IMG/VR virus record: IMGVR_UViG_3300042327_001260
Span: 32,001 to 96,000 of that record
DNA: 64,000 nucleotides
Origin: a virus
Lineage: Duplodnaviria; Caudoviricetes
Reading direction: 5' to 3' (one strand)
Both the position numbers and the translations under genes were made by a program. This document shows, one piece after another, positions 1 through 29,943 of the stretch. Positions within the stretch are counted from its first letter, which is position 1, and each line of letters opens with the position of its first letter. The notes beneath the pieces are model-generated. The model searched no databases. It saw only the letters and a program-made list of their open reading frames with translations, and was not told the origin of the DNA.

Positions 1-66
1 ACTCAAAAAGGAATGAAAACAATGTTTGGTAAACAATACCCTAATTGTGTTAAAAAGAAAAAATAA
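1..66 (+). CDS. 3' end of an ORF truncated by the window edge (..TQKGMKTMFGKQYPNCVKKK*)
   Basis: Frame 1 is open to TAA at 64-66, which overlaps the next ATG (TAATG). Confidence 0.6.
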   Translation, partial: TQKGMKTMFGKQYPNCVKKKK

Positions 67-839
67 TGAATCTACAAGAACAAATATCAAGAATGAAATC
101 AATAATGTTATCCGAAGAGATGGTACAATCTGACGGATGGAAAGTATTAGAAGAAACAATTAAAATACTTAAAAATAAAAAGAAAGTTTTATTACTAAGT
201 TGTTCCAATAGATATAATTGGGATGAGAATAATATGGACATTCCTAAATCAAGATTGTTGGCATTACACATTAAAGAAGAATTGGGTAACAAGGCAACTT
301 ATATGGATATCACAGAACTTAAAATATTACCATGTGAGGGTAATGTATCAAGAGCTGATGGAAACTCTTGTGGATTATTAAAAGCGGCTCTTAAAGACAA
401 GAAAAAGAACCCCACAGGACATCATAGATGTTGGGTAAATATTAATGAACCATCAGATGAACTATGGAAGGTTAGTAAAGAATTATTTGAATCAGATGCG
501 GTGGTATTCTTTTCATCTGTAAGATGGGGACAAGCAAATATGTATTACCAAAACTTAATGGAAAGACTTACATGGATTCAAAATAGACACTCAACCTTAG
601 GTGAGTCTAATTTAATTAAAGATATTGAATCAGGATTTATTTGTGTTGGACAAAATTGGAATGGTGAGAATGTTACTGAAACACAAAAAGAAAGTCATGA
701 GTATTATGGGTTCAAACCTAACAACAAACTTTATTGGAATTGGCAATACACTAAAGATTCAAATGATGAGTCACAGAAATCTTATAAAAAGTCTCACGAT
801 AAATTTATAAAGGATATGAAATTACCTGAGTCTAAATAA
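66..839 (+). CDS. Leader-bearing flavodoxin-like / NADPH-dependent FMN reductase (iron-sulfur flavoprotein-like) protein
   Basis: MNLQEQISRMKSIM leader; ILPCEGNVS..HHRCW..ESDAVVFFSSVRWG pattern of multimeric flavodoxins. Confidence 0.7.
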   Translation: MNLQEQISRMKSIMLSEEMVQSDGWKVLEETIKILKNKKKVLLLSCSNRYNWDENNMDIPKSRLLALHIKEELGNKATYMDITELKILPCEGNVSRADGNSCGLLKAALKDKKKNPTGHHRCWVNINEPSDELWKVSKELFESDAVVFFSSVRWGQANMYYQNLMERLTWIQNRHSTLGESNLIKDIESGFICVGQNWNGENVTETQKESHEYYGFKPNNKLYWNWQYTKDSNDESQKSYKKSHDKFIKDMKLPESK

Positions 840-840
840 T

Positions 841-1614
841 ATGAACTTACAAGAACAAATATCAAGAATACAGTCAATGATGGGATTAAATGAAGTATCA
901 AACCCATACAAAGTTGAATGGGAATACCCAACAAAGGAATATTTTACACAAGAATTAAGTGAGTTACTAGGAAACCCTGGTAGGTTTACAGAACAAGAGT
1001 TTTTTAATCCCGACAACTACGATACTGTTTATCGTATTATGCCACACACATTTAAAACAATTGCTGAATTTGCCAAAGGTGAAGAAGTAGAAAGTGAAGG
1101 TGAAATTAAGGACATACTTTTAAATCAAAATATGATATCTCTTTTAAAAGAAGAAAAAAGATGGAATGAATTAAAAGATATATTGATGAATGACCAACAA
1201 TGTATAGAAGAAGGGTATAAATTCTTTGGTCTTGGTGAAATGAAAGTATGGAAAGGGATAGATCCAGAAACCGGTGAATATGTTGACAATGTGGACAACA
1301 CAGATTATATGGGAAAAATAACAGATTTCTTATGGAATAAATCACCAGAAAAAGGCGTATCGTCAAGAGTATCACAACGACTAAAAGATTCAGATGAAGA
1401 AGACCCAAGAAGATTGGCAAAAAACATAGATGATTATAGAGATTACGCAAGAAGGGGTGAAGAAAGAAAACTACCACCAGCATTTGTTGTAAAATACTTC
1501 ACACAAAAAGAAGGTAATGATTATGTTTTAATTGGTGGATTCAAAAGAACATCAACAGCATTACAGATGGGGATAGAACCAATAAAAGTTTGGTATATAG
1601 ATATAACAAAATGA
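841..1614 (+). CDS. Leader-bearing protein with possible C-terminal ParB/Srx-like domain
   Basis: MNLQEQISRIQSMMG leader; LPPAFVV..YVLIGGFKRTSTALQMGIEPIKV resembles the ParB-N GxxR motif. Confidence 0.5.
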   Translation: MNLQEQISRIQSMMGLNEVSNPYKVEWEYPTKEYFTQELSELLGNPGRFTEQEFFNPDNYDTVYRIMPHTFKTIAEFAKGEEVESEGEIKDILLNQNMISLLKEEKRWNELKDILMNDQQCIEEGYKFFGLGEMKVWKGIDPETGEYVDNVDNTDYMGKITDFLWNKSPEKGVSSRVSQRLKDSDEEDPRRLAKNIDDYRDYARRGEERKLPPAFVVKYFTQKEGNDYVLIGGFKRTSTALQMGIEPIKVWYIDITK

Positions 1615-2408
1615 ATTTACAAGAACAAATAAATAGAATACAATCAATGATGGGATTAGTTAATGAAAACATTGACGATATCTTAGATAAGATTGGACGA
1701 GGAGAAGAATTATCTAAAGAAGATAAAGATAAAATGGATGCATATAACACCCATTTAAATTCAGGAGGAAATGAACAAGATTTTAATTATGAACCTGAAG
1801 TGGCAAAAGAAGAATCGGGAGAAATTGATTATGAAAGTTTATTAAATAAATTAATATATAACTATTTAAATGAGCTTTTTAAAAATTCATATTATGTCCG
1901 AGGATCCAAACAAATAGAAAGATCACCTGAATTTCTTAAGTTATTTAAGACTATGAGAAGAATGAGAGGGGATGACGAGGATGAAGAAAAGGCAACCTTG
2001 TTAAATAAATATACTATGGTTGGTTATACAACTCAAGGTGTGAATATTTGTATTTTAGCCACCGAATATAACTTATTAAATAGTGATAGAAATATATTTT
2101 TCTCTACGGCGGGACACATACTTCCAATTAGTAAATTTATTAAAAATTATGTTGATACAACTACCGATCAAAATATAAAAGACTCGTATGAGAATGAAGG
2201 TTTATTATTTAGATGGTATAATTTAAATAATTTTAAAGATGATGAGAAAAGACTTATAGATGTTGTATTAAAATGGGTTAATGATAAGTTCGGTGAGATG
2301 TATGATGAAGGTGAATTTGTCACTAAAGGAATAGGTAGTACAAAACAAATTTATTTTAAAGAGTTTATAAACGAAAATGGTATTGATGGGTACGTTAAAG
2401 ATTTATAG
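1611..2408 (+). CDS. Leader-bearing hypothetical protein with IDDILDKI helical motif
   Basis: Start reassigned to ATG 1611 (MNLQEQINRIQSMMG), which overlaps the previous stop (ATGA). Confidence 0.75.
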   Translation: MNLQEQINRIQSMMGLVNENIDDILDKIGRGEELSKEDKDKMDAYNTHLNSGGNEQDFNYEPEVAKEESGEIDYESLLNKLIYNYLNELFKNSYYVRGSKQIERSPEFLKLFKTMRRMRGDDEDEEKATLLNKYTMVGYTTQGVNICILATEYNLLNSDRNIFFSTAGHILPISKFIKNYVDTTTDQNIKDSYENEGLLFRWYNLNNFKDDEKRLIDVVLKWVNDKFGEMYDEGEFVTKGIGSTKQIYFKEFINENGIDGYVKDL

Positions 2409-2411
2409 AGT

Positions 2412-3074
2412 ATGAACCTACAAGAGCACATATCAAGAATGAAATCAATGATGGGGTTAATCATTGAGGAAGAACAAAGGGTTTACGAAAGCAAACCTAT
2501 TGTATTTGTTGGAACGGCAGGTGCTGGTAAATCAACAACTGCTAAAGCGGTTGCTGAAAAATTGGGAATACCTCATATAGATGTTGATGAAATGGAAGGT
2601 AGTATAGAATATGAAGAATTATGTAAGGGAGAACCTGGTGTAGAAGTTAATATTACAAGAACTGAAGACGGACATAATTATGGGTCAACAAATGATGAAT
2701 ACAAGAGATGTGTTCTTACTAAATTGTTACAAAAATATGGTGACACCAAAGTAGTTTTGGATATTGGTGGGGATAGTATAAAAAATTCTGATCTATTAGA
2801 TACTCTACCAAACTTATTTGTTTTTGGTTTACCTTTTTCACCTGAAAACGATAAACCATACATCCAATTCCTAAAACAAACTAGAAAAGACAGAGCGGAA
2901 AAGATGGGACAACCTAATTTAGAGGATGGAATCAAAGATGATGATATACAACAATCAATTAACAGTGTAAGGGAATTTTATATGGGTAAACAAAATATAA
3001 ATCCTTTCACTGAAAACGGACAAAGAAAAACAACAGAAGAACTTGTTGATGAAATTATAACAAAATTAACTTAA
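2412..3074 (+). CDS. Leader-bearing shikimate-kinase-like P-loop kinase
   Basis: Walker A GTAGAGKST, HIDVD, LDIGG. Confidence 0.7.
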   Translation: MNLQEHISRMKSMMGLIIEEEQRVYESKPIVFVGTAGAGKSTTAKAVAEKLGIPHIDVDEMEGSIEYEELCKGEPGVEVNITRTEDGHNYGSTNDEYKRCVLTKLLQKYGDTKVVLDIGGDSIKNSDLLDTLPNLFVFGLPFSPENDKPYIQFLKQTRKDRAEKMGQPNLEDGIKDDDIQQSINSVREFYMGKQNINPFTENGQRKTTEELVDEIITKLT

Positions 3075-3515
3075 ATGAACCTACAAGAACATATCAGAAA
3101 AGTATTAAGGGAGGAAAACCTAAACCAATTTTTAATTAATCAAATTAAAGATAATGGTATATTAGATACATCCAGATTAGTCGGGGGGTTAAAAGAACTA
3201 ATTTATCTTTTAGGTAAAGAATATTTTACAGATGACATTAAGATTAAATTAATTAAAGAGATCGTACTTACTACAGAAGAAGAGTATCTAACTTTTATAG
3301 AGATGAATGAAAACCCATTAGTTTTAACGGATGAAGATGATCTATTAACACAAATAGAAATGTTATACCCACATGATGTTGCTGTATTTTATTATTATGG
3401 ATATGATGAAGAATCGGCAGATGAGGCATATATAAATTATGACATATTAACAAGTCGTGTGTTAAAGGATATATTTAATATGGTTATTAATTATTATATC
3501 AAAAATGAGATGTAA
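3075..3515 (+). CDS. Leader-bearing hypothetical protein (paralog of 10776 and 11509)
   Basis: MNLQEHIRKVLREE, followed by DNGILDTSRLVGG. Confidence 0.75.
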   Translation: MNLQEHIRKVLREENLNQFLINQIKDNGILDTSRLVGGLKELIYLLGKEYFTDDIKIKLIKEIVLTTEEEYLTFIEMNENPLVLTDEDDLLTQIEMLYPHDVAVFYYYGYDEESADEAYINYDILTSRVLKDIFNMVINYYIKNEM

Positions 3516-3542
3516 TAAAAGAGTATAAGACTAAATAATTTA

Positions 3543-3559
3543 TTAACGATTTGTTAATA
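3543..3559 (+). promoter_or_regulatory. Putative Pho-box-like direct repeat (TTAACG-N5-TTAATA)
   Basis: Hexamer repeat with 11-bp period upstream of the GT2/PlcP-like pair; similar element at 20539-20555. Confidence 0.35.
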
Positions 3560-3592
3560 CCAAATACCCAATTACAAAGATAGTTATATTAT

Positions 3593-4297
3593 ATGGAACT
3601 ATCTAAATTTTTAACAATAGTCATTCCGTGTAAAAACGAATCAAAAACAATAGACTCCACACTATCCCTATTAAATTTCCAAGATAACATAGATAACGTA
3701 AAAGTTATTATTTCAGATTCATCCACCGATGAAACCACATATCAATTGGAATCAAGAACAAACGATAAGTTTGATTTAAAAATAATAGAAGGGGGACTAC
3801 CAGCAAAGGCAAGAAACAACGGAGCAAGATACGTAAAAACACCATACGTTTTATTTATTGATTCGGATATGTATTTACTTGATCCGACACTTTTAAATAC
3901 AGTAACAAGAATGATGTTATATGGAGGAATTGATTTACTTACAACGAAGATAAGAACAACAAACGGGAAATATAACTATGTGTTTAGAACGTTTGATTTT
4001 ATACAGAAGATATCCAAGTTCATATCACCATTTTGTTTAGGTGGGTTTATGTTATTTAAAATGAACACATTTAACGAATTAGGGGGATTTGACGAAGAAG
4101 CGAAGGTTGCAGAGGATTACCTACTATCAAAACAAATTAAACCAAATAGATTTAAAATAATAAACACCACAGTATTCACGCCACCAAGAAGATTTGATAA
4201 CAAGGGGGTAATGTATATGATGAGGTTAATGATTAAATCATTTTTGAATAGAAACAATAAACAATTCTTTTCAGACGATAACACATATTGGAAATGA
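3593..4297 (+). CDS. Glycosyltransferase family 2
   Basis: TIVIPCKNE, SDSSTD, ARNNGA, LFIDSD (DxD), GGFDE..AEDY. Confidence 0.9.
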   Translation: MELSKFLTIVIPCKNESKTIDSTLSLLNFQDNIDNVKVIISDSSTDETTYQLESRTNDKFDLKIIEGGLPAKARNNGARYVKTPYVLFIDSDMYLLDPTLLNTVTRMMLYGGIDLLTTKIRTTNGKYNYVFRTFDFIQKISKFISPFCLGGFMLFKMNTFNELGGFDEEAKVAEDYLLSKQIKPNRFKIINTTVFTPPRRFDNKGVMYMMRLMIKSFLNRNNKQFFSDDNTYWK

Positions 4298-5007
4298 AAA
4301 AGTGGAGAACAATTATAATGAGTGATTTACACTTAGGAGCAAGACAATCACAAACAACTAAGATACTACAATTCTTAGAGAAGAATGAATCAGATATATT
4401 AATTCTAAATGGTGACATAATAGATGGTTGGGCAATGAAATCAAAAGGTAAATGGAGTAAGGATTGTTCAAAGATATTTAGAAGGTTTATGAAAAGAAGT
4501 GAACAGGGAACAAAGGTAATATACATAAGAGGAAATCACGACGATTTTTTAAAACCATTCGTCCCGTTTAAGATGAATAACATAGAGATTGTAAGAAAGT
4601 ATGTACACAAAGGATTAGACGGAAGAAAGTATTTTTGTTTTCACGGGGATGTATTAGACTTTGTTATAATGAAAGTAAGATGGTTAGCGGTAATAGGTGG
4701 ATGGAGTTATGATTTTGTTATAAGATTAAATACAATATACAACTACATAAGAAGAAAGTTTAATCTACCATATCATTCATTAGCAAACACAATTAAACAA
4801 TCAGTAAAGGGAGCAATTAACTTTGTATCTGATTTTGAAACAAACGCAAAACAACTAACAATACAGAAGGGATATGATGTTGCGGTATGTGGACATATTC
4901 ATCACCCTAAGTTAGATAAAGATTATATGAACTCAGGAGACTTTTGTGAGAACTCCACTTGTTTAGTAGAAGATTTTAATGGTGAGTGGTTTATCATTAA
5001 TGTGTAG
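4294..5007 (+). CDS. Metallophosphoesterase, UDP-2,3-diacylglucosamine diphosphatase / PlcP phospholipase C-like
   Basis: SDLHLG, GDIIDGW, GNHD, HGD, CGHIH, NSGDF motifs; ATGA coupling to the GT2 gene. Confidence 0.85.
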   Translation: MKKWRTIIMSDLHLGARQSQTTKILQFLEKNESDILILNGDIIDGWAMKSKGKWSKDCSKIFRRFMKRSEQGTKVIYIRGNHDDFLKPFVPFKMNNIEIVRKYVHKGLDGRKYFCFHGDVLDFVIMKVRWLAVIGGWSYDFVIRLNTIYNYIRRKFNLPYHSLANTIKQSVKGAINFVSDFETNAKQLTIQKGYDVAVCGHIHHPKLDKDYMNSGDFCENSTCLVEDFNGEWFIINV

Positions 5008-5096
5008 AGTATAGATTTAATTTACTCACTCATCTCTACCGTTCATTTCATTCACTACGACATTCGTTTCATAACTTAATCCTATACTCTTACATT
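4999..5096. repeat. Long imperfect inverted repeat (AGAGTATAG...CTATACTCT core)
   Basis: 5006-5014 pairs with 5082-5090 and extends imperfectly on both sides. Confidence 0.6.
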
Positions 5097-5970
5097 TCTA
5101 TAAAGGTTATGTGGTAATTCTTAGGACATATCTTAAATCATAATGTAATATACTATTAACAAAATACCTTACAATTGTAAAAAGTATTTACATTTAGCAT
5201 TAAAATATAATAATCATACAACACTAAAATATAATACACATTAATAAGTTTACAGTAAACTATCTATTGTAAACAAATTCCCCCCATTCAGTGGGTTTAA
5301 TAAACTGTCCCCCATTATCTATATGGATAATCTATATAAGATGTATATGTATGTTTCTTATACTATACTGATGAGGTGTTCACTAAAAGGGGATGTTCAG
5401 TGTAACTGAACAATAGTGTATGGTGAACAATAAAGTATTATATAAACGAACCATATAACGTGGGACAGAAAGGGACACGTTTATTTTATATGTACCATAT
5501 TCCTTTAAATTGTCCCACGTTTTCCCACTATTATAATATCTTATCTAAGTGATCCTTTATACGTTGGGGTATATTATATGTCACATTTACATGTTCCATT
5601 CGTTGGAAATACTTAAGGACTTCGTCTCCGCGCTAACTACATAGTTAATACATTAATTAGCTGGAAAATGTATATAGTAAAAAAAATACGTCTACAGATA
5701 CCTACAGAGGGGATTTTTTAGGGTACAGCTATAACCAGCAAGGATTATGGTGGTAAATAGTGGAATAATATGGTGGGGAAAAGTGGTAAAAAGGATTGTC
5801 CCCTGTGTGAAGCTCGACTGACATTTTGACAAAAACAAATAAAATGACATATTTTTTTAAAAAAAAGTTATCAACATTCCCCCTGACATACTGTCAGACA
5901 CCAATTTAGTATTTATTTATCAACAAAACATTAATATAATTAATGGTAAACCGTTACAACATTAAGGAAT

Positions 5971-6294
5971 ATGGAAGGAGTAGAGAAGTTTTTAAAGGAA
6001 GAATTCATCCCCAAGGTAGTAGAAGATAAACAGGGAATCAAATGTTTATTCAAACATAAGAACAACTTAGTGGAAGATGGGGTTGTATTTTTTGAGTTTG
6101 CTAAGAAGTCATGGAGTAAGAAACCCATCATGAATAAAAAACAGTTTGTTATAGTGGATGCAGATATGACTGACGTGTTAACATTTCTAAACACATACTA
6201 CAATCTATCTGAGGATGACTTCCCAACGGTTAGAAAAGTAATCATCGATATGGCAATGTCACATATAGATAAGTTCTTCGGAGGGGAAGATTAA
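5971..6294 (+). CDS. Hypothetical protein
   Basis: 107-aa ORF with ATG start and plausible composition. Confidence 0.65.
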   Translation: MEGVEKFLKEEFIPKVVEDKQGIKCLFKHKNNLVEDGVVFFEFAKKSWSKKPIMNKKQFVIVDADMTDVLTFLNTYYNLSEDDFPTVRKVIIDMAMSHIDKFFGGED

Positions 6295-6461
6295 TCAAGA
6301 GGTTCTAAGTCCTCGTCTGTAAGGATATGTTTTATAATCCAATAGTATTGTTTGGATCCTTTCATGTATTCAACTATGAACACACAGTACAACATCACAA
6401 CCCAAAAGAGGGAGAAGATAATCCCAAGAGAGATAAGAAGATAATTAACGATTGTCATCAT
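6291..6461 (-). CDS. Small membrane protein (56 aa, MMTIVNYLLISLGIIFSLFWVVMLYC...)
   Basis: Translated by hand; below the ORF-track cutoff; one long hydrophobic stretch. Confidence 0.5.
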   Translation of the reverse strand: MMTIVNYLLISLGIIFSLFWVVMLYCVFIVEYMKGSKQYYWIIKHILTDEDLEPLD

Positions 6462-6846
6462 GGTTAGATATGTAAACTATTAAGTAAGATATGAATAGGG
6501 ATAACATACACATAAATAAAGTAACAACATCCTCTTTCATACAATGATAATTAATAATGATAAATATCTTATCAGTCAAGTTTGTATATGTCAAATCTTT
6601 TTCGTACCTTAGCTCTGTAACTGTCACTAACGATGGGGACCGAGTAGACTCCAACACGTCCCAACTTTTGTAAACTATAAGGCAGGTTGGAGTCCACCCT
6701 CTTAGAGAAGAACTTGTTTCCCTGACCCGTCTCGGACTGAACCACTGACAATCATAAAGGTACGGATTATATATGAGACTACAAAACATTCCCCCATATA
6801 TTTTTAGAGAGTTATTAACATGACACATTGACTGTTAATAAATGAC

Positions 6847-6970
6847 GGGGACTATATACCCCCCTCTATACTTTGGCATACCCCACCCCCCTATATATTT
6901 GGGGCCCCCTCCCCCGTATCCCCCCTCCGATATGACACATTGTCAGGGGTAAAAAGGGGGGACAGTCCCC
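6847..6970. other. Cluster of C/G homopolymer tracts (G-quadruplex-capable on the minus strand)
   Basis: At least six runs of 4-6 C plus several G runs in about 120 nt of an otherwise very AT-rich sequence. Confidence 0.7.
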
Positions 6971-7070
6971 TTTGCAAAGTATTCATAAGAAAAAAGTCCC
7001 TATGATATTAAAAAAAATTCTGGAAAAATTTTATGAAAAATCGGGGTATTTATGTATAAAACATTATATT

Positions 7071-7487
7071 ATGAAAAGAACTATAAAACTTACAGAATCA
7101 GATTTAACACGTATTGTTAAACGGGTGGTTAAAGAAAATGAAAACCATTGGGAAGGTTTTGGATTTGAAGATGAGGAATCATTTATTGAGTCTTATGTTG
7201 AGGCCGATGAGTATGCTAATGATTTATATTGGGACTTGAATTTGGATATTGAAAATGAGTTTGCTAATTGTATTAAAAACATGAATTTACCAAAAATGAT
7301 TTCAGATTATCAAAATGAGTTTATTCAAAAATACGGAAAATACATTAACATGGATGCATCAATTTACAATGAACATATTGATTCCTTTTTGAGTCTTGAT
7401 GGAAGAAATATTGATGTTAGTGATTTATCCTCCGCATTGACTGAAACGGTCTTTATATGGATGGAAAAAAATATAAAAAACAATTGA
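7071..7487 (+). CDS. Leader-bearing hypothetical protein
   Basis: Start reassigned to ATG 7071 (MKRTIKLTESDLTRIVKRVVKE); TATTTAT at 7047. Confidence 0.8.
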   Translation: MKRTIKLTESDLTRIVKRVVKENENHWEGFGFEDEESFIESYVEADEYANDLYWDLNLDIENEFANCIKNMNLPKMISDYQNEFIQKYGKYINMDASIYNEHIDSFLSLDGRNIDVSDLSSALTETVFIWMEKNIKNN

Positions 7488-7493
7488 TAGTTT

Positions 7494-7522
7494 AACCCCC
7501 CCTCCCAACAGAGGGGTTTTTT
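7494..7522 (+). terminator. Intrinsic terminator
   Basis: CCCCTC/GAGGGG stem followed by a T-run. Confidence 0.7.
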
Positions 7523-7546
7523 ATTTCCCCTTATATTTATTCTTAT

Positions 7547-7879
7547 ATGAAACATCTTATTAAACGTATACTCAAAGAAGAAACCGAGACAGAGTTTCGT
7601 AAAGTAATTAAAGTATTAAAGAACTTTATTATAGAATACTTTTCTGATGTAGATTGGTTTAAAGACGTTGATTTTGAAATGGGTACTTGGTTTAATTCAA
7701 ATTTAATCCCAACTCCAGAAATTAAAATTACAATTTATATTTCTGATGAAGATGATATTGTAACAACAAGTGATTTTTCAGAATTAGTAGGAGAGATTGA
7801 TTTTATAATGGATATGTTTTTTCCAATGAAAGATTATACGTATACTGCTGTTTGGACATTAGATGTAAACCCTGTATAA
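7547..7879 (+). CDS. Leader-bearing hypothetical protein
   Basis: MKHLIKRILKEE; TATTTAT at 7534. Confidence 0.8.
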   Translation: MKHLIKRILKEETETEFRKVIKVLKNFIIEYFSDVDWFKDVDFEMGTWFNSNLIPTPEIKITIYISDEDDIVTTSDFSELVGEIDFIMDMFFPMKDYTYTAVWTLDVNPV

Positions 7880-7973
7880 TATTATTTCCCCCTAAAAACT
7901 TTTCACATCTTTTATACCCCCAAATCTCAAAAAAAATTTCCATAAAATTTTTGGTAAATCCCAACTATTATAT

Positions 7974-7981
7974 TATCTTTG
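7974..7981 (+). promoter_or_regulatory. Bacteroidota -7 promoter element TATCTTTG
   Basis: Matches TAnnTTTG; lies upstream of leader-less ORFs 8007, 8205 and 8506. Confidence 0.6.
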
Positions 7982-8006
7982 TATTCAACATTAAATATCA
8001 ACTATT

Positions 8007-8180
8007 ATGACACGGTATCAATTCGATTTATTCTTCTCATTACTTTTTCTTTTATTGTGTAATGTAATTTGTTATTATACCAACGGAAAGTTTGTTCATA
8101 TCTCAACAAACATTGGAATGTCCTGTATAATACTTTTTATTTACTTTACAAGTAGGGGATTTAGTCAAAAATTGAAATAG
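8007..8180 (+). CDS. Small two-TM membrane protein (57 aa)
   Basis: Translated by hand: MTRYQFDLFFSLLFLLLCNVICYY..IGMSCIILFIYF. Confidence 0.5.
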   Translation: MTRYQFDLFFSLLFLLLCNVICYYTNGKFVHISTNIGMSCIILFIYFTSRGFSQKLK

Positions 8181-8204
8181 TTAACATCTTAAAAAATTTA
8201 TTAT

Positions 8205-8501
8205 ATGAAATGTAAAATATTATTTGAATCAAAACACGTTAACAGTAGCGATTACTTTGGAACAAAGATTATATCCATGTTTGAAAAGAAATTTAAGATT
8301 TTGTATGAATGTAGAAACGGGTCTTCAGGACTTACTGTGGAGGTAATGAACTCTGACGGATCGTTTAACCACCTTCTTTCTAAATACACCCTTGGGTTTA
8401 CCCACTCTGCCAGATATGTTAGCGATGTATCAGAAAAGGATAAGGACTTCTATAAGGGGTTTGAATTATGTAAGGAAGTTATCTCTAAAATTTATTCTTA
8501 A
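8205..8501 (+). CDS. Hypothetical protein
   Basis: 98-aa ORF in a putative host-promoter operon. Confidence 0.7.
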   Translation: MKCKILFESKHVNSSDYFGTKIISMFEKKFKILYECRNGSSGLTVEVMNSDGSFNHLLSKYTLGFTHSARYVSDVSEKDKDFYKGFELCKEVISKIYS

Positions 8502-8505
8502 TCAT

Positions 8506-8763
8506 ATGGGTGATAAAATGTTTGTTGGAGTTTCCGTGACTGTTAAAGACGGGAGATTCTATTTTGATATAATGGCAGATAAGGGATTGTATATGGAAGA
8601 TATTCGTTCTATTCTTGTTGGGGGTGTTGCATTATCCATACGTGGGGAGAAGACACCTGAACTTCAGGCAAAGGCAATGCGGGATGTTATTTCACATTTG
8701 GAATCTGAATTTATTAATCCCGATTCATTTAGTGATTTGGGTGTAAATGATGATGTAAAATAA
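8506..8763 (+). CDS. Hypothetical protein
   Basis: Start reassigned to ATG 8506 (MGDKMFVG), just after the previous stop. Confidence 0.65.
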   Translation: MGDKMFVGVSVTVKDGRFYFDIMADKGLYMEDIRSILVGGVALSIRGEKTPELQAKAMRDVISHLESEFINPDSFSDLGVNDDVK

Positions 8764-8841
8764 AAAATTTTTTTTACACCGAACCATCCCCCCGCCCCCT
8801 TCCTTTTTGGTGTGTCATCATATTTATAAATAAAAATAATT

Positions 8842-9459
8842 ATGAAAAGAATAATAAGACTTACAGAATCTGATTTAACTCGTATTGTTAAACGAACCAT
8901 TAGTGAGATGAGATTTTCTGATGACGAAGAATTTGATTCGGAAAATGAGTTGATACCTTATGATTTGTGTAGAAATATGGAATACCTTGTACATGCCGAT
9001 TTTCCAAGTGGAATGATAACCAAAGAAAAAATTATTCAAATACTGGATGATTACATGAATACCGCAAGTAGATACTTGAGAAAAAAATTAATATCATCAG
9101 ATGATTATGAAAAAATTTCTGATTGTTATGAAGAATCTATGTTAGAATTAGAAAATACAGAATATAACAAATTAAATGAAATGGAAATTTTTAAACGTGT
9201 TATTAAAGAACAAGAAGAACTATTTCACAAAAAGACAAATGAGAACGGTGTTTTTATTAGTGTTAAAGAAACCATGAATGGAATTTTTGAATTATATATT
9301 AGTGATGATGATAATGGATTTGGTGAGGTATATTCATTTGAGGGTGACAGGGGGTTAGCCAATGGAGTTTTTGTACAATCAAAATTACATGTACAAGATG
9401 GGAAAAGTGGTGAAGAAGTTTTTAATTATATTGTTGAAAAATTGCAACAAATGAATTAG
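8842..9459 (+). CDS. Leader-bearing protein with a second internal leader-like segment
   Basis: MKRIIRLTESDLTRIVKRTISE; internal KLNEMEIFKRVIKEQE; TATTTAT at 8821. Confidence 0.8.
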   Translation: MKRIIRLTESDLTRIVKRTISEMRFSDDEEFDSENELIPYDLCRNMEYLVHADFPSGMITKEKIIQILDDYMNTASRYLRKKLISSDDYEKISDCYEESMLELENTEYNKLNEMEIFKRVIKEQEELFHKKTNENGVFISVKETMNGIFELYISDDDNGFGEVYSFEGDRGLANGVFVQSKLHVQDGKSGEEVFNYIVEKLQQMN

Positions 9460-9483
9460 TAAAAATAATTAAAACTATAAGTT

Positions 9484-9513
9484 ACCCCATTCCTAATAAG
9501 ATTGGGGGTTTTT
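9484..9513 (+). terminator. Intrinsic terminator
   Basis: ACCCC...GGGGGT stem followed by a T-run. Confidence 0.6.
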
Positions 9514-9533
9514 ATTATGTTATATTTATCTAT

Positions 9534-10223: not shown

Positions 10224-10298
10224 ATCATTATTTCTAATTTTTTTTACACTTAATCTTCTCCAGCCACCCTCTTTTTTATTTGTGGGTATTTATTGTAT

Positions 10299-11443: not shown

Positions 11444-11452
11444 ATTATACAT

Positions 11453-11480
11453 CCCCCACCCTATCAAGTGGGGTTTTTTA
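11453..11480 (+). terminator. Intrinsic terminator
   Basis: CCCCAC/GTGGGG stem followed by T6. Confidence 0.7.
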
Positions 11481-11508
11481 TTTTGATATATTTATTAAAG
11501 TAGACTAT

Positions 11509-14093: not shown

Positions 14094-14354
14094 ATGAATA
14101 GAAATTTATTAAATGAAATAAACCAAATGAAATTTATGTTTGGTTACAAACCAGGTAAAGTTTTATCTGAACAAGACGAACCAAAATTCGATATAGGAAC
14201 TGCGTTGTCAATATATCAAGTTAAACCTGGTGATAATTTAACAAAAATATCAAAAGAAATGGGCGTATCTGTTGATGAGATTTTAAAACAAAATCCACAT
14301 ATTAAAGATAAAAATAAAATATTTCCTGGTGACAAAATACAGATAGAGAAATGA
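14094..14354 (+). CDS. Leader-bearing LysM-domain protein
   Basis: YQVKPGDNLTKIS..GVSVDEILKQNP..IFPGDKIQI. Confidence 0.9.
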   Translation: MNRNLLNEINQMKFMFGYKPGKVLSEQDEPKFDIGTALSIYQVKPGDNLTKISKEMGVSVDEILKQNPHIKDKNKIFPGDKIQIEK

Positions 14355-16859: not shown

Positions 16860-17819
16860 ATGAAAAATTTAAGCGAAGAAATGATAAGAATCCATCAATT
16901 GATGAGTTTTGAAAAAGGTAAAAATACCATTTCAGAATCAGCTCAAATATTATTGGAAGGGGTAAAAAAACAATACAAACTTTTAATCGAAGAAGGTGAT
17001 GAACTTTTTAGTAATGGTGATTATGATGAAGCCCTTGTTAAATATAAAGAAGCTAATAATTTATTTGTCGATAAACCTAATCACAAATTCTTTATAGAAT
17101 CCCAACAAAAAATAAAAAATACTGAAAATAAAATAGTAGAAAAACAAAAATTAGAAGAGGATAAAAAGATTAAAGAATTTTTAACTAAAATAGATAATAT
17201 ACTAAAAAAAGAAATTAATGCTAAATTACAAACATTATTATCTGATTTAAAATTAAAATTTGGTTTTTCTGGTGGCCAATATGTTATGTATGATGCGTCT
17301 AATAGTAACGTATTGTTATCGTTTGACAATAACGGTTGGGGAGGAAAATCAAAAACACTAAGGTACGGTAAAGGGTATTTTGAATTAAAACAAATAAGCG
17401 CGGTTGATTATGTTGAAACAGTAAATTCAAATCTTACTGACGATGAAAAAATAAATTTTGAAAAGGTTGGTTATATAACGTCTATACCTGATAAGTCTAT
17501 TAAAAATATGTTTGATTCAGGATCTATTGGTATATGGTTAAAAGGTTTAAATCCCGACGGGTCAATAAATCAAATGGGATGGGAAAGATGTAACGTATCG
17601 GGTTCAGGTGGACAAATGGAAAAAACATGTTTTAATGATGTTAAAACTGATAATATTTATAAAAATGGTACTGAAGAAATACCTTACGACAAAATTTTAT
17701 ACGTTGAGGGTTCAGGACTAACAGAAAACAAGAGAATAGGATACGGAGGAATAAAAATCTATAACTCAAATGTTGGGGTAGGTTTGGATACCCCAATAAA
17801 TGATATTTTATTCCCCTAA
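16860..17819 (+). CDS. Leader-bearing protein with TPR-like repeat
   Basis: MKNLSEEMIRIHQLMSFE; EEGDELFSNGDYDEALVKYKEA. Confidence 0.75.
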   Translation: MKNLSEEMIRIHQLMSFEKGKNTISESAQILLEGVKKQYKLLIEEGDELFSNGDYDEALVKYKEANNLFVDKPNHKFFIESQQKIKNTENKIVEKQKLEEDKKIKEFLTKIDNILKKEINAKLQTLLSDLKLKFGFSGGQYVMYDASNSNVLLSFDNNGWGGKSKTLRYGKGYFELKQISAVDYVETVNSNLTDDEKINFEKVGYITSIPDKSIKNMFDSGSIGIWLKGLNPDGSINQMGWERCNVSGSGGQMEKTCFNDVKTDNIYKNGTEEIPYDKILYVEGSGLTENKRIGYGGIKIYNSNVGVGLDTPINDILFP

Positions 17820-18274
17820 TTTAAAATTAATTTACCTTCTTTAGTAATTAAAAACACAACTTCATTAACTGAAGGTGCAAAATTTGTAAAAAAAGTAACA
17901 CCACAGTCTGTTGAAACTTTGTATTTATATTTATTTTTTAACACCTTTTTTACTTTGGTGCATTTAACAGGTTTAGTTTCAGAAAAAAGTTTATAGTATT
18001 CTGTATCATACAGTTCGTCAAACAAACTATTTTCATAATCTTTTTTAGTTATGTATTGGTTTTTTTGAGTGTCGTAATAGCAAAATACATCACCAACCAA
18101 ATATGAACTTTTACAAATAAAACCATTAGAATCACTTGTTTTAACATAAAAAGTTGTGTCATTATAATCGGTTTTTTGTTCAACAGATATCACAAATACA
18201 GTATCAATATTTTTTTGCGAGTATGAAAAAAAAGAAATAGTAAACAAAACGATAGACAACAATAGATTTTTCAT
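17816..18274 (-). CDS. Secreted protein (Sec signal peptide)
   Basis: MKNLLLSIVLFTISFFSYS|Q, a typical Bacteroidota signal with +1 Gln. Confidence 0.75.
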   Translation of the reverse strand: MKNLLLSIVLFTISFFSYSQKNIDTVFVISVEQKTDYNDTTFYVKTSDSNGFICKSSYLVGDVFCYYDTQKNQYITKKDYENSLFDELYDTEYYKLFSETKPVKCTKVKKVLKNKYKYKVSTDCGVTFFTNFAPSVNEVVFLITKEGKLILN

Positions 18275-18387: not shown

Positions 18388-19860
18388 ATGAACCCAAACA
18401 AAAGATTATTAGAAGAAATAAGTAGATTTAAAATGATGTCGAGATACCAACCCGGTAAGTTGATTAATGAACAGTTAATTAACGAAGAACCGGATTACCC
18501 TAAACCGACTGATACACCATTGTCTGAAGTTGAATTGTATAGTGTTGCCGATAAAGAGTTAGTTGAGAGAGATATGGTTAGGGTTTTAAATCAGATTATT
18601 GAAGTTGATCAAGATGAAATTATGTCTAAAATTAATGTTAAAGTTAATGAAAAACTACAACTTGTACTTGATGATATAAAAATATTACCTTTTAAAAAGG
18701 TATTAAGTGGTGGTAGAATTTATTTAGGTGATTATTCTTGGAATGAAAGATTAAGAGACATGTCAAGTGTTGAAGATAAGTACATTTATGTTAAACGACC
18801 GGGAATAAGTATAGGGGACGGACCTGTTTATATTGGTGATTACTATAATAAATTAATTGCAAATGACCCAACACCTGGAAAACAATTTAGTGCGTTTTTT
18901 GAAAAATACAAAGATAAGAAATTAGAAAGTGGTGTTAATATTTCTGATTATGTTAAACAACAACTAGAAAATTTAAAAGCAGAAGTGTTTATAGTTCCAA
19001 TTAGATTTGACGAAAGATTTAAAATTGAATATTCTTATCGGGATTACGAAAAAGAATTTGGTTTTAGTATACAACAAGAAAAAACATCAAGAAAAGATTA
19101 TAATGATTATGCTTATAATATTAATGAAGAAATACCACTAGATAAAATAGCATTTCCAAAAGTACCTGTTTACGTAGGGCCAAATCGTAAACAAACATAT
19201 AAAATAGAATCAAGGTATTTACAGTTATCGTTTGGTGATTTAGTTTTAAGTATACCGCCTGAAATGAATGACTTAATTTATGCGGTTACCCCGACACCAA
19301 CACCAACTTCAACCCCGACACCAACACCAACTCCTGAAGTCATTGCTTTTGATTTTGTCGTGGAAACCGCAAAAAATTATGAGTTTGATAAAGCAGAATT
19401 AACTCAAGATGCTAAAAATGAAATTGATAAAAATATAACGGCTAAATTTCTAAGTATATTACCTAAATACCAAGAAGGTTATCTTAATTTTATAAAAGAT
19501 AAAGAAATACCTGTTTACGCTTATGCTTCTATTGATGCTGATCCAGATTATAAGGATGGAGGGTATTATGAAGGTTGCTCCCAATATGGTGTAGGTAAGG
19601 GACCTAGAAAACTTTACAATAAATGTTTAAGTCAAGCTAGGGCACAAAAGGTTGTGGATTATTTAAAAACAACACAAGGGGGTATTTTTAAAGACGTTAA
19701 TTTTAAACCTGTAGGTATGGGTGAAACATGTGAATTTAGTGGTTTATGTTGGAAGGTTAAAAATCCAGGATCTAATGAAAAAAGTCCTTATAGTACCTCT
19801 AAAACTTACCCTGATAGAAGGTTTAGTGTTAACTTCCCTAATTATCATGCGGATTTTTAA
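18388..19860 (+). CDS. Leader-bearing protein with PT linker and C-terminal OmpA-like peptidoglycan-binding domain
   Basis: LLEEISRFKMM leader; (TP)n linker; YEFDKAEL..YNKCLSQARAQKVVDYL..GMGE..DRR. Confidence 0.75.
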   Translation: MNPNKRLLEEISRFKMMSRYQPGKLINEQLINEEPDYPKPTDTPLSEVELYSVADKELVERDMVRVLNQIIEVDQDEIMSKINVKVNEKLQLVLDDIKILPFKKVLSGGRIYLGDYSWNERLRDMSSVEDKYIYVKRPGISIGDGPVYIGDYYNKLIANDPTPGKQFSAFFEKYKDKKLESGVNISDYVKQQLENLKAEVFIVPIRFDERFKIEYSYRDYEKEFGFSIQQEKTSRKDYNDYAYNINEEIPLDKIAFPKVPVYVGPNRKQTYKIESRYLQLSFGDLVLSIPPEMNDLIYAVTPTPTPTSTPTPTPTPEVIAFDFVVETAKNYEFDKAELTQDAKNEIDKNITAKFLSILPKYQEGYLNFIKDKEIPVYAYASIDADPDYKDGGYYEGCSQYGVGKGPRKLYNKCLSQARAQKVVDYLKTTQGGIFKDVNFKPVGMGETCEFSGLCWKVKNPGSNEKSPYSTSKTYPDRRFSVNFPNYHADF

Positions 19861-20456
19861 TTATTAATGTAAACAACACCAATATGGAAAGTTGCGTAAA
19901 TACAAATTGATCCTTGGTAATCGCCTAATTTTGATGAGCACGATCCAATTAAGTAGTTTTGGAATCTATTATTCAATATGTATTTATCTTTTCCGTAATA
20001 CTCTAAAACCATTTTGTGTGGTTCTGATGTGCACCATCTATCTACAATTTTTTTTGCCATTTCTTGATATGTCTTACAATCATTAATATATCCTGTGATA
20101 ATACAAACCTCCATAGTCATATTATTTAAATCCCCGCCTTTATCTACGGATAATTTAGGGTTAGATTTTTGAACAACATTAAATACCTTTTGTTGAATAT
20201 CAGTAACTATTGTACCACGTTCAGGATGATAACATTTTTTAGCATCTAACATTTTTTTTGTTTGGACTTTTGAAACATTATCTCTCATTAAACTTGAAAA
20301 ATGTATAGTATTACGTTCTAATGAGTCACGAATATTATTAACCTCAACAAAAATTAAACTATCTAATAAATTATAATTAATTTTTGACATATCTAACGGT
20401 TGAGAAAAACACCCAAAACCTAAAAGTAAAAATAAAACGAATAATAAATTTTTCAT
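19857..20456 (-). CDS. Secreted CAP/SCP-like domain protein
   Basis: Signal peptide ..GCFS|Q; VNNIR..MAKKIVDRWCTSEPHKMVL; TATATTTG at 20477-20484. Confidence 0.7.
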   Translation of the reverse strand: MKNLLFVLFLLLGFGCFSQPLDMSKINYNLLDSLIFVEVNNIRDSLERNTIHFSSLMRDNVSKVQTKKMLDAKKCYHPERGTIVTDIQQKVFNVVQKSNPKLSVDKGGDLNNMTMEVCIITGYINDCKTYQEMAKKIVDRWCTSEPHKMVLEYYGKDKYILNNRFQNYLIGSCSSKLGDYQGSICIYATFHIGVVYINN

Positions 20457-20693: not shown

Positions 20694-20720
20694 TACCTAT
20701 TGTTTGTATATTTATTCTAT

Positions 20721-21185
20721 ATGAATCTTAATGAGGAAATAAATAGGATTAAATCACTAATGATGGAAAACGTTTTGAATTATAAAATTCAAACATATGG
20801 AGACATACATTCCGAAGACGGAATGAGAGTGTGTATTCTAACACCAAAAGATGATTATATTGGTGAAACAAACATCATTGGGTTCCAACACGCATTAGAT
20901 AAAAGTCGTGATCTTAAAACGTTTTTAGAAAATCAAAATGATTTATTTAATCAAGAAAATTGTGTTTATCAGTATGGTTTAAAAGTTGATGATAAATTTA
21001 GAAGACAGGGATGGGGTGAAAAATTAAAAGGTGAGTGTGATAATATTGTTAAAGGTAACGGATTCAAATACATTACAAACATAGTTAGTTGTTCAAACGA
21101 AGCGTCACAAGGATTAATGAAAAAAAAAGGTTACCAAATACATCAAACAAACGGAATAAAAGATTTATTATATTTTGAATTATAA
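20721..21185 (+). CDS. Leader-bearing GNAT acetyltransferase
   Basis: MNLNEEINRIKSLMME; LKVDDKFRRQGWG (acetyl-CoA motif A); NEASQGLMKKKGY. Confidence 0.85.
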   Translation: MNLNEEINRIKSLMMENVLNYKIQTYGDIHSEDGMRVCILTPKDDYIGETNIIGFQHALDKSRDLKTFLENQNDLFNQENCVYQYGLKVDDKFRRQGWGEKLKGECDNIVKGNGFKYITNIVSCSNEASQGLMKKKGYQIHQTNGIKDLLYFEL

Positions 21186-22109: not shown

Positions 22110-22176
22110 ATTAATATTTTTATTAATGATACTTTATTTTTTATATTAAGTCAAATATTTATTTAATAAAAGATTT

Positions 22177-22785: not shown

Positions 22786-22812
22786 ATTATTGAATTCTGA
22801 AGATGCATTTAT

Positions 22813-23298: not shown

Positions 23299-23377
23299 AA
23301 TATATTTTTTTAAATGTTTATAATACAAATATACTACATTTTTTTTAATTGCAAAACTATTTATTAAAAAAATAATT

Positions 23378-24115: not shown

Positions 24116-24153
24116 TTTTTTTTTGTATATTTGTAGAATAATCGTTTTACAGT

Positions 24154-28776: not shown

Positions 28777-29349
28777 ATGAAAATCATAATTACAGAGTCA
28801 CAATACCGTTTTTTAATGGAAAATACCGTTGAAATTAACCAAATTTTGGATAAAATGAACGAAATTGGGTATGAAAACCTTGAAAATCACGAAAAAAACA
28901 CCCTAAATCAGTACTCAGAGTGGTTAAAAGGGGGTAAAAAGGGTGAATTTATACCTCAAAATACCCCTAAAAACACCGATTTTGACGGTGAAAACGATGA
29001 TTTTGACGGTAAAACAGGTGAAGAATACACCACTTATTTACCTGATGGTAGTGAATTTTCATTTAGATATGACTATTCTGATATATTAAATGATGAAAAC
29101 ATATACTATGGTAGTGTAAAATGGCATGGAGAAGAGTGGATTGGGTTAATTGCTACAGATAAAAAAGACAATTTAACAGAAATTGACTTTGTTTTAGATC
29201 AAGATTCGTTCCAAACATATGATTCTGAAGATGAATTTGCAGGATATGATGAAAATAAAGAGGTTAGACTACAACTTGAGATAGGAAATGACATACACCA
29301 GGTAAAATATTTCTTCCAAGAGGATGTTATACCTTATTTAGTTGATTAA
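28777..29349 (+). CDS. Leader-bearing protein with ILDKM..GYENL motif
   Basis: Start reassigned to 28777 (MKIIITESQYRFLME); TATTTAT at 28766. Confidence 0.8.
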   Translation: MKIIITESQYRFLMENTVEINQILDKMNEIGYENLENHEKNTLNQYSEWLKGGKKGEFIPQNTPKNTDFDGENDDFDGKTGEEYTTYLPDGSEFSFRYDYSDILNDENIYYGSVKWHGEEWIGLIATDKKDNLTEIDFVLDQDSFQTYDSEDEFAGYDENKEVRLQLEIGNDIHQVKYFFQEDVIPYLVD

Positions 29350-29943
29350 ATTATTTTCTTTTAAGTGTTTAAACAAAGATTTCGCTAGTTTTTCGCCAAA
29401 TTTTATATCCGATGGGTAATGCGCTTTAGCCATTTGTCTTGAATATACAATATCATCTTTAATTTTTTTTAATTCTTTTCTATAGTTTGGGTATTTGTCG
29501 GATAAAACCAAGTATATTAGGTTTGATTGTGTTGAATGTCCTGAAGGATAAGCAAACCCATCGGTTGATTTTAACATGGGATCAGTTAATTTTGAATCTA
29601 CCCTAAACGGTCTTGGTCTTTTATAAAAATTCTTTAGCTCTAATATAACAATACGGGCACTTTCACCTAATTTAAAAATCAATTTTTTCTCATCAATATC
29701 CTTTGTTAGTAAAAAGTCATTAAAGTTACCATCAATATCATCGTTTTTTTGTACAAATCGTTTTTCTAAATTTATATTTTTAAGGTATTCAATTTCTTTT
29801 TTGGTTTCTTTACTGTTTTCTGGTGATGGTGGGTAATTTTTAAATTCTGTTAAATCAAAATTTTTAAATAAATTATGTTTACGAGATTCCTCGTTGATAT
29901 CCATTAAATTTTTTATTCTATTTATTTCTTCATTTAATAACAT
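29338..29943 (-). CDS. Leader-bearing PAP2-family (acid) phosphatase
   Basis: KNFYKRPRP, YPSGH, SRQMAKAHYPSD; MLLNEEINRIKNLMDINEE leader. Confidence 0.9.
   Translation of the reverse strand: MLLNEEINRIKNLMDINEESRKHNLFKNFDLTEFKNYPPSPENSKETKKEIEYLKNINLEKRFVQKNDDIDGNFNDFLLTKDIDEKKLIFKLGESARIVILELKNFYKRPRPFRVDSKLTDPMLKSTDGFAYPSGHSTQSNLIYLVLSDKYPNYRKELKKIKDDIVYSRQMAKAHYPSDIKFGEKLAKSLFKHLKENNLIN

Follow-up and report, generated by a model that had tools for sequence, protein, structure and literature searches.

Why do five adjacent virus genes, coding for proteins with unrelated bodies, all begin with nearly the same DNA and the same few amino acids? The question is raised by the start of a 64,000 nt stretch of DNA, here called the window, which represents bases 32001-96000 of a single 128,044 bp virus record (IMGVR_UViG_3300042327_001260; 30% GC; CheckV completeness 43%), from a T4-like jumbo phage of roughly 300 kb with a probable Bacteroidota host. 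A first, sequence-only reading had taken the shared DNA for a homology arm by which genes are inserted, deleted or shuffled, as in an integron array that lacks an integrase. The analysis described below gives a different answer: the shared start, here termed the leader, is very probably a peptide module maintained by selection. It belongs to the phage lineage and not to the gene that carries it, and in related phages the DNA encoding it has been a site of crossover.

The Five-Gene Array

Five open reading frames (ORFs) on the + strand abut or overlap at the start of the window, with spacings of +1, -4, +3 and 0 nt (genes 1-5, Table 1), and all five have the N-terminus MNLQE(Q/H)I, exactly as first reported. 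A degenerate 20-mer, ATGAAYYTACAAGARCANAT, searched with two mismatches or fewer, matched the window only at the five array starts (0.03 matches expected), and five matches were reached in none of 100 shuffles. Similarity among genes 1-4 extends over 48 nt, at a mean DNA identity of 82% and with the peptide MNLQEQISR(M/I)(K/Q)S(I/M)MGL, which bears out the earlier estimate of about 40 nt; gene 5 shares seven codons with genes 1-4 and then continues as ...IRKVLREEN.

The bodies were said to be unrelated and proved to be so: after removal of the first 28 residues, no pair matched by BLASTP at E<=1e-3. The labels attached to them fared less evenly. The kinase label of gene 4 comes down to a Pfam match confined to the P-loop (SKI, 3.3e-6, residues 37-61). 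The flavodoxin-like label of gene 1 was recovered weakly, at the level of fold: its AlphaFold2 model (mean predicted local distance difference test score, pLDDT, 71.5) found FMN-reductase, WrbA and flavodoxin as top Foldseek chains (E 2e-4; template-modelling score 0.38-0.55), and the leader appears in this model as a low-confidence free helix (pLDDT 44-54). The ParB-like label of gene 2 is unconfirmed, with no match among Pfam, PHROGs or PDB sequences. Genes 2, 3 and 5 had no Pfam match, a PHROGs search returned nothing for genes 1, 2, 3 and 5, and a PDB sequence search with genes 1 and 2 gave chance-level matches only.

The five-gene frame is real but too narrow, as leaders are found on dozens of other genes and the array itself continues upstream of the window, where there are three MNLQEHI genes (genome 29071-30339) and one ...HIKKVLREE gene. 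A leaderless nitroreductase gene stands between these and a DUF2237-family gene that runs into the window (Table 1), and upstream of the latter, beyond the window edge, are a promoter-like TATTTAT motif and a terminator hairpin. A BLASTn search of window positions 1-6000 against 50,697 phage records gave no match. A known RNA element was considered as the source of the repeat and rejected, with no Rfam match in window positions 1-9000 and no tRNA found by ARAGORN in the whole window.

A second small module may be shared by some of these genes. In the class D gene at 28777-29349, the residues that immediately follow the leader (18-48) match Pfam DUF6576 (47 positions; 31.2 bits, exceeding the cut-off), and gene 3 has a weaker match in the same place (residues 19-45; 17.4 bits).

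Leader Classes in the Genome and in Related Viruses

Four related N-terminal classes can be distinguished in the 128 kb record: class A (NLQEQISRMKSMMGL / NLNEEINRIKSLM), class B (MKRIIRLTESDLTRIVKRVLKEE), class C (MKxLIKKILKEE) and class D (MKIIITESQYKxLLE), along with hybrids such as MNLQE + HIRKVLREE. The leaders are 10-22 residues long and have the form of an amphipathic helix with a hydrophobic-x-Glu (h-x-E) end. The class patterns matched 45 of the 176 ORFs of the record within their first 40 residues, compared with one internal match in 33,135 residues. One combined pattern matched 41 of the 176 ORFs, a set that was enlarged by eye to 59, and in 81 related loci it matched 283 of 1,535 ORFs against 12 of 4,305 windows placed behind an internal Met. 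In a complete 308.6 kb relative, the same pattern occurs in 32 of 385 ORFs, with 27 of them concentrated at 58-110 kb. ORFs were called greedily as the longest ATG frame, and because this procedure is naive the counts of leader genes are approximate.

This conservation is specific to the N-terminus, the substitutions are conservative, and synonymous differences occur between the leaders, all features of a conserved peptide. The class B leader is also present on 98 metagenome proteins of 131-412 amino acids (aa), and the 16 that were inspected have unrelated bodies, several with peptidoglycan-binding domains. Proteins with this leader in NCBI are all annotated as 'hypothetical protein'. Such leaders were not seen in the first 50 kb of a cultured relative, Flavobacterium phage vB_FspM_immuto, and tBLASTn searches of the 50,697 phage records with two 42-aa leader stretches gave one weak unrelated match and no matches, respectively. 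Ten leader strings were also absent from the literature searched, a coverage that mostly leaves out subscription journals, and a search by description gave one unrelated paper. Two metagenome relatives (P0011 and P0013) have a second, internal copy of the class B leader, which suggests either that two neighbouring leader genes were merged in gene calling or that cassettes have truly fused in frame.

The Leader Follows the Genome and the Body Follows the Gene

Gene 1 has 221 relatives in IMG/VR, and 80 of their loci were retrieved. Its body begins at a conserved (L/I)SEEMVQSD, and the leader preceding this point varies by lineage: MNLQEQISRMKSIM in the record described here, and MKTILQEELNRLRQLM, MNLQENIQRIREMM, MSNIIQEEIEKIRKMM or MIKLADLISEIM elsewhere. 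The last of these is found on gene 1 relatives in contigs whose neighbouring genes begin MIKLTDILKEV or MIKLIDILKEV. In two contigs gene 1 is leaderless, and there none of the 30 and 27 ORFs, respectively, is a leader gene.

The kinase (gene 4) gives the same picture. The bodies of its orthologues are 69-77% identical, and in an alignment of five proteins the window gene and three of the four orthologues carry a class A leader, while the fourth (L089) has the unalignable MIKLIDILNE. The same protein is therefore preceded by MNLQENIQRIKQMMGLLTE in one lineage and by MIKLIDILNE in the other, and the closing Glu of the leader does not vary among the five proteins or between the two leader types. 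For orthologues of gene 1 and of gene 4 alike, the flavour of the leader is that of the neighbouring genes. Moreover, in the DUF2237, kinase and GNAT acetyltransferase genes the leader is an extension that precedes a domain of a cellular family. Since leader-less orthologues occur only in leader-less genomes, a reader of the leader encoded by the phage genome is suggested.

Leader DNA as a Site of Exchange

That gene content should vary among relatives was foreseen by the sequence-only reading, and it does. Among 78 loci with a relative of gene 1, gene 4 is present in two and genes 2, 3 and 5 in none, and the neighbours of gene 1 on both sides differ in almost every lineage. Relatives of gene 2 were found only in two loci (L005 and L115), with different neighbours, and the body of gene 3 has no relative in IMG/VR. 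In another locus (L073) gene 4 follows directly behind gene 1, and by comparison the window carries two extra cassettes.

Insertions and deletions (indels) were listed between related contigs with 82-97% identical flanks, giving one list of 19 (with duplicates) and a second of 39 (which includes two leader events of the first). Five independent indels remove or add a whole leader and body, and in these the two flanking alignments overlap by 26-60 nt that correspond to the leader itself. For example, in one pair (L047/L028) two adjacent unrelated genes have leaders identical at 44/44 nt, and the short allele consists of the upstream flank of the first gene and the body of the second. The leader of the short allele in a second pair (L034/L049) is a chimera of both leaders; a third pair (G004/G013) shows two leader-crossover events, and a five-gene block is involved in a fourth (G014/G004). 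Breakpoints that coincide with leader DNA, as predicted, are a feature of relatives. In the array of the window no leader-crossover event was seen, its nearest relatives being 75-80% identical, and about 28 of the 39 indels affect non-leader genes, where they are equally gene-precise and show overlaps of 2-67 nt in intergenic DNA (intergenic repeats).

A look for leader-to-leader junctions in metagenomic reads had also been proposed as a check, and some are present in assembled contigs. Lake contigs were compared over genome positions 22001-42000; the sides of the joints are 21-46 nt at 85% likeness, from diverged relatives, the examples given here are among the matches listed, and stretches without coverage carry no weight. 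Certain contigs join leader to leader (7091->9610 and 10855->9610), and others end exactly at leader ATGs (L087 positions 3589, 8037 and 11611) or just behind leaders (10884 and 18895).

The repetition of one coding stretch at the start of many abutting genes gives it a second use as a crossover point, and leader DNA is likely to act as a true substrate for recombination among these phages. It is nevertheless kept by selection on the peptide and does not exist for recombination, so the idea of a homology arm survives in part, for a sequence that is foremost a conserved peptide and not a DNA repeat. The integron-like nature of the array does not hold up. The tyrosine-recombinase integrase family (PF00589) had no match in the 128 kb record, which is 43% complete, in a search whose control matched 14 of 14 genomes, and there is no room for attC sites because the genes abut or overlap (-4 to +3 nt).

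Source Phage and Host

By its capsid protein, the phage is nearest among named viruses to Flavobacterium phage vB_FspM_immuto, Microcystis phage Mel-JY01 and Rhodothermus phage RM378, at 38-44% identity over about half of the protein. A Bacteroidota host is indicated by a protein with the CHU_C type IX secretion domain, by lipoprotein-style signal peptides, and by TAnnTTTG motifs, which we take to be the host-type promoter element. Near-identical DNA was found in at least 24 lake-water or freshwater sequencing runs, each with its own study code. T4-type head genes are present in the record, including those for terminase, portal (Portal_T4, 1.4e-77), a Peptidase_S77 prohead protease (1.1e-22; genome 102907-103614) and a Gp23 capsid protein (1.2e-74). 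The S77 protease occurs in five of five complete relatives (IMG/VR; 292-322 kb), and also in the lineage with MIKL leaders.

A Possible Role in Capsid Targeting

The presence of these genes raises the possibility that the leader works, once translated, as an address label or propeptide similar to the capsid targeting sequence (CTS) of T4, directing proteins to the capsid. We favour this role over the alternatives considered below, while stopping short of calling it probable. Under such a scheme, the leader would dock its cargo protein to the scaffolding core during prohead building, and would then be removed by the T4-type S77 protease, cutting behind the Glu. The cargo (cell-wall hydrolases, kinase, acetyltransferase, redox and unknown proteins) would remain in the head and enter the host with the DNA. 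At the level of the genome, the leader DNA, together with terminator-promoter cassettes between operons that resemble the promoter-early stem-loop (PeSL) elements of T4-type phages, would allow whole units of leader and cargo to be gained, lost or moved.

The T4 prohead protease, gp21, has the consensus L/I-x-E. In 87 of 102 class A leaders (about 43 of these rows are gene 1 orthologues), a [LIVM]xE motif follows the pattern within 8 residues, compared with 14.7% of background windows. Within the record it is found in 57 of 59 leader proteins and in 47 of 117 others, a comparison that is partly circular as the motif is built into the patterns. In three of three relatives the capsid protein keeps L-I-N-E-A unchanged at residues 57-61, N-terminal to its conserved shell domain, and we set this site beside what we take to be the cut position of T4 gp23. 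Five leader proteins directed at the cell wall (with LysM, PG_binding_1, M23+VanY, Hydrolase_2 and PAP2 domains) lack signal peptides, and cell-wall proteins without export signals would fit delivery through the tail. Exported proteins of the phage have ordinary signal peptides and no leader. The leaders were themselves considered as Sec, Tat or type IX secretion signals and rejected, as they form charged amphipathic helices that lack both a hydrophobic core and an RR motif.

The DNA upstream of the genes offers a further hint. Leader genes preceded by a gap of 25 nt or more number 24; TATTTAT occurs within 45 nt in 22 of them and the host-like TAnnTTTG in none, compared with 57 non-leader genes with such a gap, of which 12 have TATTTAT only, 12 the host-like motif only, one both and 32 neither; a relative (G002) shows the same TATTTAT trend. 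The motif also precedes the genes for the prohead protease, the scaffold and other structural proteins, hinting that leader genes are co-regulated with protease and scaffold genes.

Several points weigh against capsid targeting. No homology between the leaders and the T4 CTS was detectable, the likeness being one of length and of the h-x-E end; packaging is argued by analogy, and docking, cleavage and injection are steps that we infer. The [LIVM]xE motif is frequent in this Glu- and Ile-rich proteome and is found in 40% of non-leader N-termini. There are 41-59 tagged genes in a 43%-complete fragment, and 32 among the 385 ORFs of the complete relative, as against 3-10 internal proteins (Ips) in T-even phages; they include proteins of 828-1084 aa and ordinary cytoplasmic-type enzymes, and 18 of the 59 entered the set by eye. 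TATTTAT is not specific to a head regulon, because it is also found ahead of numerous genes that are neither structural nor leader-bearing (in G002, 67 of 176 spaced non-leader genes). Finally, the starts of leader genes are weakly folded and share codons above expectation, which also fits a role in translation initiation. A complex prediction for the scaffold protein (482 aa; genome 103992-105440) with residues 1-40 of gene 3 scored 0.00 and was counted neither way.

The fullest version of this proposal describes a plug-and-play cargo system in freshwater Bacteroidota jumbo phages, in which a receptor particular to each lineage would recognize a few families of short tags within the prohead core and the protease would then remove them. 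In this way 30-60 enzymes and effectors, among them cell-wall hydrolases, kinases, acetyltransferases, redox proteins and many unknowns, would be loaded and injected, and the tag DNA would be the handle for their exchange both inside one phage lineage and from one lineage to another, each incoming gene acquiring the resident tag. As a complete package this is rather doubtful, and it is offered as a tentative model.

Alternative Explanations

In one alternative the leader exists for its DNA, as the homology arm of an integrase-free, integron-like array with an incidental peptide. The five crossovers inside leader DNA, among them the 44/44 nt pair and the chimera, speak for this, as do the metagenome contigs that end at leader ATGs. 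Leaders on unrelated bodies have an exact run of 30 nt or longer in common in 3 of 1,252 within-locus pairs compared with 9 of 24,532 between-locus pairs, the top cases all being neighbouring genes, and codon sharing is slightly higher within a genome (694/1035) than between genomes (7373/11913; the pairs are non-independent). However, exact identity extends over no more than 22 nt among the array leaders and 24 nt across the record, which does not exceed what is obtained by back-translating the same peptides with the codon usage of the genome (maximum-run p 0.065-0.99), and synonymous differences (AAT/AAC, CTA/TTA, GAA/GAG, GGA/GGG) are frequent. A role as DNA would not demand an amphipathic helix conserved through I/L/V/M and K/R exchanges over classes and lineages; leaders are also found on isolated genes outside arrays, with their own promoter-like motif; indels in non-leader genes are just as precise, and no integrase was found in the fragment. 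We regard this explanation as very improbable. Descent from old tandem paralogues that diverged everywhere except at the N-terminus has even less to commend it, and was rejected for the array genes. Some subsets of genes in the window do have more than the leader in common: gene 5 and the genes at 10776 and 11509 form a small VGG family with about 45 N-terminal residues in common (L..I...G.....VGG...L), and the pair at 43650/44945 is 42% identical over 186 residues. The array as a whole is a different case, since its five bodies have no BLASTP similarity, leader genes have unrelated folds with cellular homologues (P-loop kinase, flavodoxin-like, DUF2237, GNAT, LysM, M23, PAP2), and leader swaps leave the same body with non-alignable leaders in different lineages.

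Two further explanations concern translation and docking. The leader could be a standardised translation-initiation region: where the host does not use Shine-Dalgarno sequences and the operon has no intergenic space, an A-rich, unstructured first 30-60 nt would secure the expression of newly acquired genes, and the peptide would simply be tolerated. The start windows (-15..+45) of the 59 leader genes have a minimum free energy of -2.19 kcal/mol compared with -4.10 kcal/mol for 117 others (Mann-Whitney p=1e-5) and a GC content of 20.5% compared with 24.2%, every leader starts ATGAA, and the abutting or overlapping genes have no space for upstream signals. Identical leader residues share codons at 0.69-0.81, compared with the 0.52-0.56 expected from genome codon usage. 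Any A/U-rich sequence would suffice for such a role, yet four specific motifs of up to 22 residues are kept from lineage to lineage, with helix periodicity and like-for-like replacements; the best conserved positions are hydrophobic (NUN codons), orthologues without a leader are confined to genomes without leaders, and the weak folding may simply follow from a helix rich in Lys, Glu, Ile and Asn. We judge a purely translational role improbable. Docking to a partner outside the prohead is unlikely too, and deserves more attention, the candidates being a ClpB/ClpC-like AAA+ unfoldase of the phage, another chaperone, a membrane or cell-pole site, or a common oligomerisation partner. The evidence that the leader is a selected peptide module particular to each lineage counts equally for this explanation, a ClpB-like AAA+ protein with two rings and no N-domain is encoded in the window, and the number and size range of tagged proteins are easier to accommodate in a cytoplasmic system than as capsid cargo. 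The partners are candidates only, and such docking leaves unexplained the constant h-x-Glu end, the length and layout of a T4 propeptide beside a T4 protease, and the cell-wall enzymes without export signals.

Features of the Window

The leader genes of the window and one intergenic composite are given in Table 1.

Table 1. Leader-bearing genes and an intergenic composite, with positions in the window
Feature	Position	Strand	Leader and remarks
DUF2237-family gene, 3' end	1..66 (genome 31575-32066)	+	Class A leader MNLQEQLSRMKSMMDI; first gene of abutting operon
Gene 1, 257 aa	66..839	+	Class A leader MNLQEQISRMKSIM (66-107), LSE; weakly flavodoxin/FMN-reductase-like body
Gene 2, 257 aa	841..1614	+	Class A leader MNLQEQISRIQSMMGLNE; body without family match
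Gene 3, 265 aa	1611..2408	+	Class A leader MNLQEQINRIQSMMGLVNE
Gene 4, 220 aa	2412..3074	+	Class A leader MNLQEHISRMKSMMGLIIE, then P-loop kinase-like body
Gene 5, 146 aa	3075..3515	+	Hybrid leader MNLQEHIRKVLREE: class A start, class C end
Intergenic composite	7496..7546	+	GC-rich hairpin, T-run, TATATTTAT (7532-7540), then class C leader ATG at 7547
Class C leader gene	7547..7879	+	MKHLIKRILKEE
Class B leader gene	8842..9459	+	MKRIIRLTESDLTRIVKRTISE
Further class B genes	7071, 10299, 11192, 16125, 22177, 26498, 30448, 56422		
Leader gene with LysM domain	14094..14354	+	No signal peptide
Class A leader gene	20721..21185	+	MNLNEEINRIKSLM; GNAT acetyltransferase body
Class D leader gene	28777..29349	+	MKIIITESQYRFLME
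Further class D or D-like genes	13563, 48192, 51230, 59398		
Class A leader gene	29338..29943	-	MLLNEEINRIKNLM; PAP2 phosphatase body
Peptidase_M23 + VanY cell-wall hydrolase, 607 aa	31440..33263	-	Class C-like leader MYLKLLNILKEE; no signal peptide
Protein with PG_binding_1 domain, 542 aa	37657..39285	+	Class A-like leader MGNLLNEIRQFRRFVNLNE
Two adjacent paralogues, 422 and 1084 aa	43650..48199	+	Common leader MK(N/K)NLLLEVERNLTLMGIS

The promoter-like motif TATATTTAT is found 11-22 nt before start codons at window positions 7532-7540, 8821-8827, 10287-10293, 11489-11495 and 20709-20715, with about 50 more in the record. Of its 28 exact copies, 21 lie within 60 nt upstream of a start on the same strand (4.1% expected). 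With just 2-12 nt left before the ATG, many of the resulting mRNAs would have no untranslated leader, or almost none. On the minus strand, genes whose products have lipoprotein-like signal peptides (17816-18274, 19857-20456, 22813-23298 and 61032-61622) are preceded instead by TAnnTTTG (TATATTTG), and this one-base difference from TATATTTAT, which divides two sets of genes and strands, may mark host-polymerase from phage-directed transcription. Further composites of hairpin, T-run and motif directly before the next ATG are present at about 9470-9533 and 11450-11508 of the window and at L087 9527-9575; like the one in Table 1, they look like analogues of the T4-type PeSL terminator/promoter cassettes.

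The ClpB/ClpC-like two-ring AAA+ protein without the usual N-domain is encoded on the - strand at 57120-59159 (AAA_2, 4.3e-56; ClpB_D2-small). Also on this strand are genes for a UvrC-like nuclease (27445-28719; GIY-YIG and UvrC RNase H domains), a DenV-like pyrimidine-dimer glycosylase (50668-51186) and an FKBP-type prolyl isomerase (21684-22109). The leader gene at 24994-25509 contains an internal duplication of about 55 residues (SEQPDVMEPDTETETRPKTRPGKPDSDPFPNPFDPDRSREFNPLPDLEPQG, two copies). A proline-rich tandem repeat (PPADLGAPMPP... / MGGEEGMPP...) is found in the ORF at 63108-63998, which runs off the window just upstream of the head module. Approximately 1.6 kb (5008-5970 and 6300-7000) is without a convincing ORF, tRNA or Rfam match and has many hairpins formed by runs of G and C; many metagenome joints fall within this ORF-poor stretch (L087 15684-16907).

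Implications

Should the leaders prove to be packaging tags, they would single out, among the many genes of unassigned function in uncultured giant phages, those whose products are delivered into the host at infection. The internal proteins injected by T4 turned out to be anti-defence proteins. A tag of this kind would provide a sequence handle for mining injected effectors from metagenomes, and a natural set of orthogonal cargo-loading tags for phage engineering. Whatever the function, a coding repeat that acts as the crossover for whole-gene exchange extends PeSL-type shuffling from regulatory to translated DNA, and it also accounts for the way in which genes of foreign, cellular origin (DUF2237, kinase, GNAT) come to have an N-terminus particular to the phage.

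Comparison with Known Systems

The closest parallel is with the internal proteins of T4. T4 Ips have only an N-terminal leader in common, which directs packaging (PMC12373910), CTS propeptides are 10-20 aa long and are cleaved behind Glu by the prohead protease (PMC5694885), and the T4 CTS is MKTYQEFIAE (10.1101/2021.01.19.427310). Features shared with the T4/T-even CTS proteins (Ip1-3 and Alt) are unrelated proteins with one short N-terminal leader, a Glu end, variable hotspots, and head genes of the gp20/gp21/gp23 type (PMC12373910, PMC5694885, PMC3012670). The leader MIKLIDILNE and the T4 CTS are of equal length and both have an h-x-E end. In T4 there is one leader and 3-10 tagged genes, whereas here there are four classes with hybrids and 30-60 tagged genes per genome, the cargo includes large enzymes and cell-wall hydrolases, and the flavour of the leader on the same cargo depends on the lineage. 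We compare the leaders with the T4 CTS/Ip class and do not assign them to it, because homology was not found and packaging is argued by analogy.

PeSL elements are short repeats on either side of dispensable ORFs in hyperplastic regions, and where close relatives differ by an indel the crossover falls inside the repeat (PMC2839356, PMC4122927), as seen here in the leaders. A PeSL element as described there is a non-coding promoter with a stem-loop terminator, whereas the crossover repeat described here is coding (the first 15-60 nt), is selected as a peptide, and occurs in arrays without intergenic space. The phage also has PeSL-like intergenic composites of hairpin and TATATTTAT between operons. 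With integrons the array shares a one-way succession of unrelated, tightly packed cassettes, an upstream promoter-like site and a high turnover of content. It differs in that no integrase was found in the 43%-complete record, the repeat is 5' and translated, and exchange resembles homologous recombination; attC or attI sites were not seen, though no search was aimed at attC.

SPN3US and phiKZ, also jumbo phages with a T4-related protease, have about 50 head proteins, including diverged paralogues with identical N-termini that contain the cleavage motif (PMC5694885). Their propeptides are mostly longer than 100 residues, the motif is A/S-x-E and only eight processed proteins are known, and these phages are not known to have families of short leaders on dozens of unrelated genes (PMC5694885). 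By analogy, then, the array described here may work like the T4 CTS/Ip loci combined with PeSL-type shuffling. What is new in comparison with these systems is the scale of 30-60 tagged genes, the existence of several leader classes and their hybrids, the lineage-specific leaders on orthologous cargo, and the use of a translated repeat as the handle for recombination.

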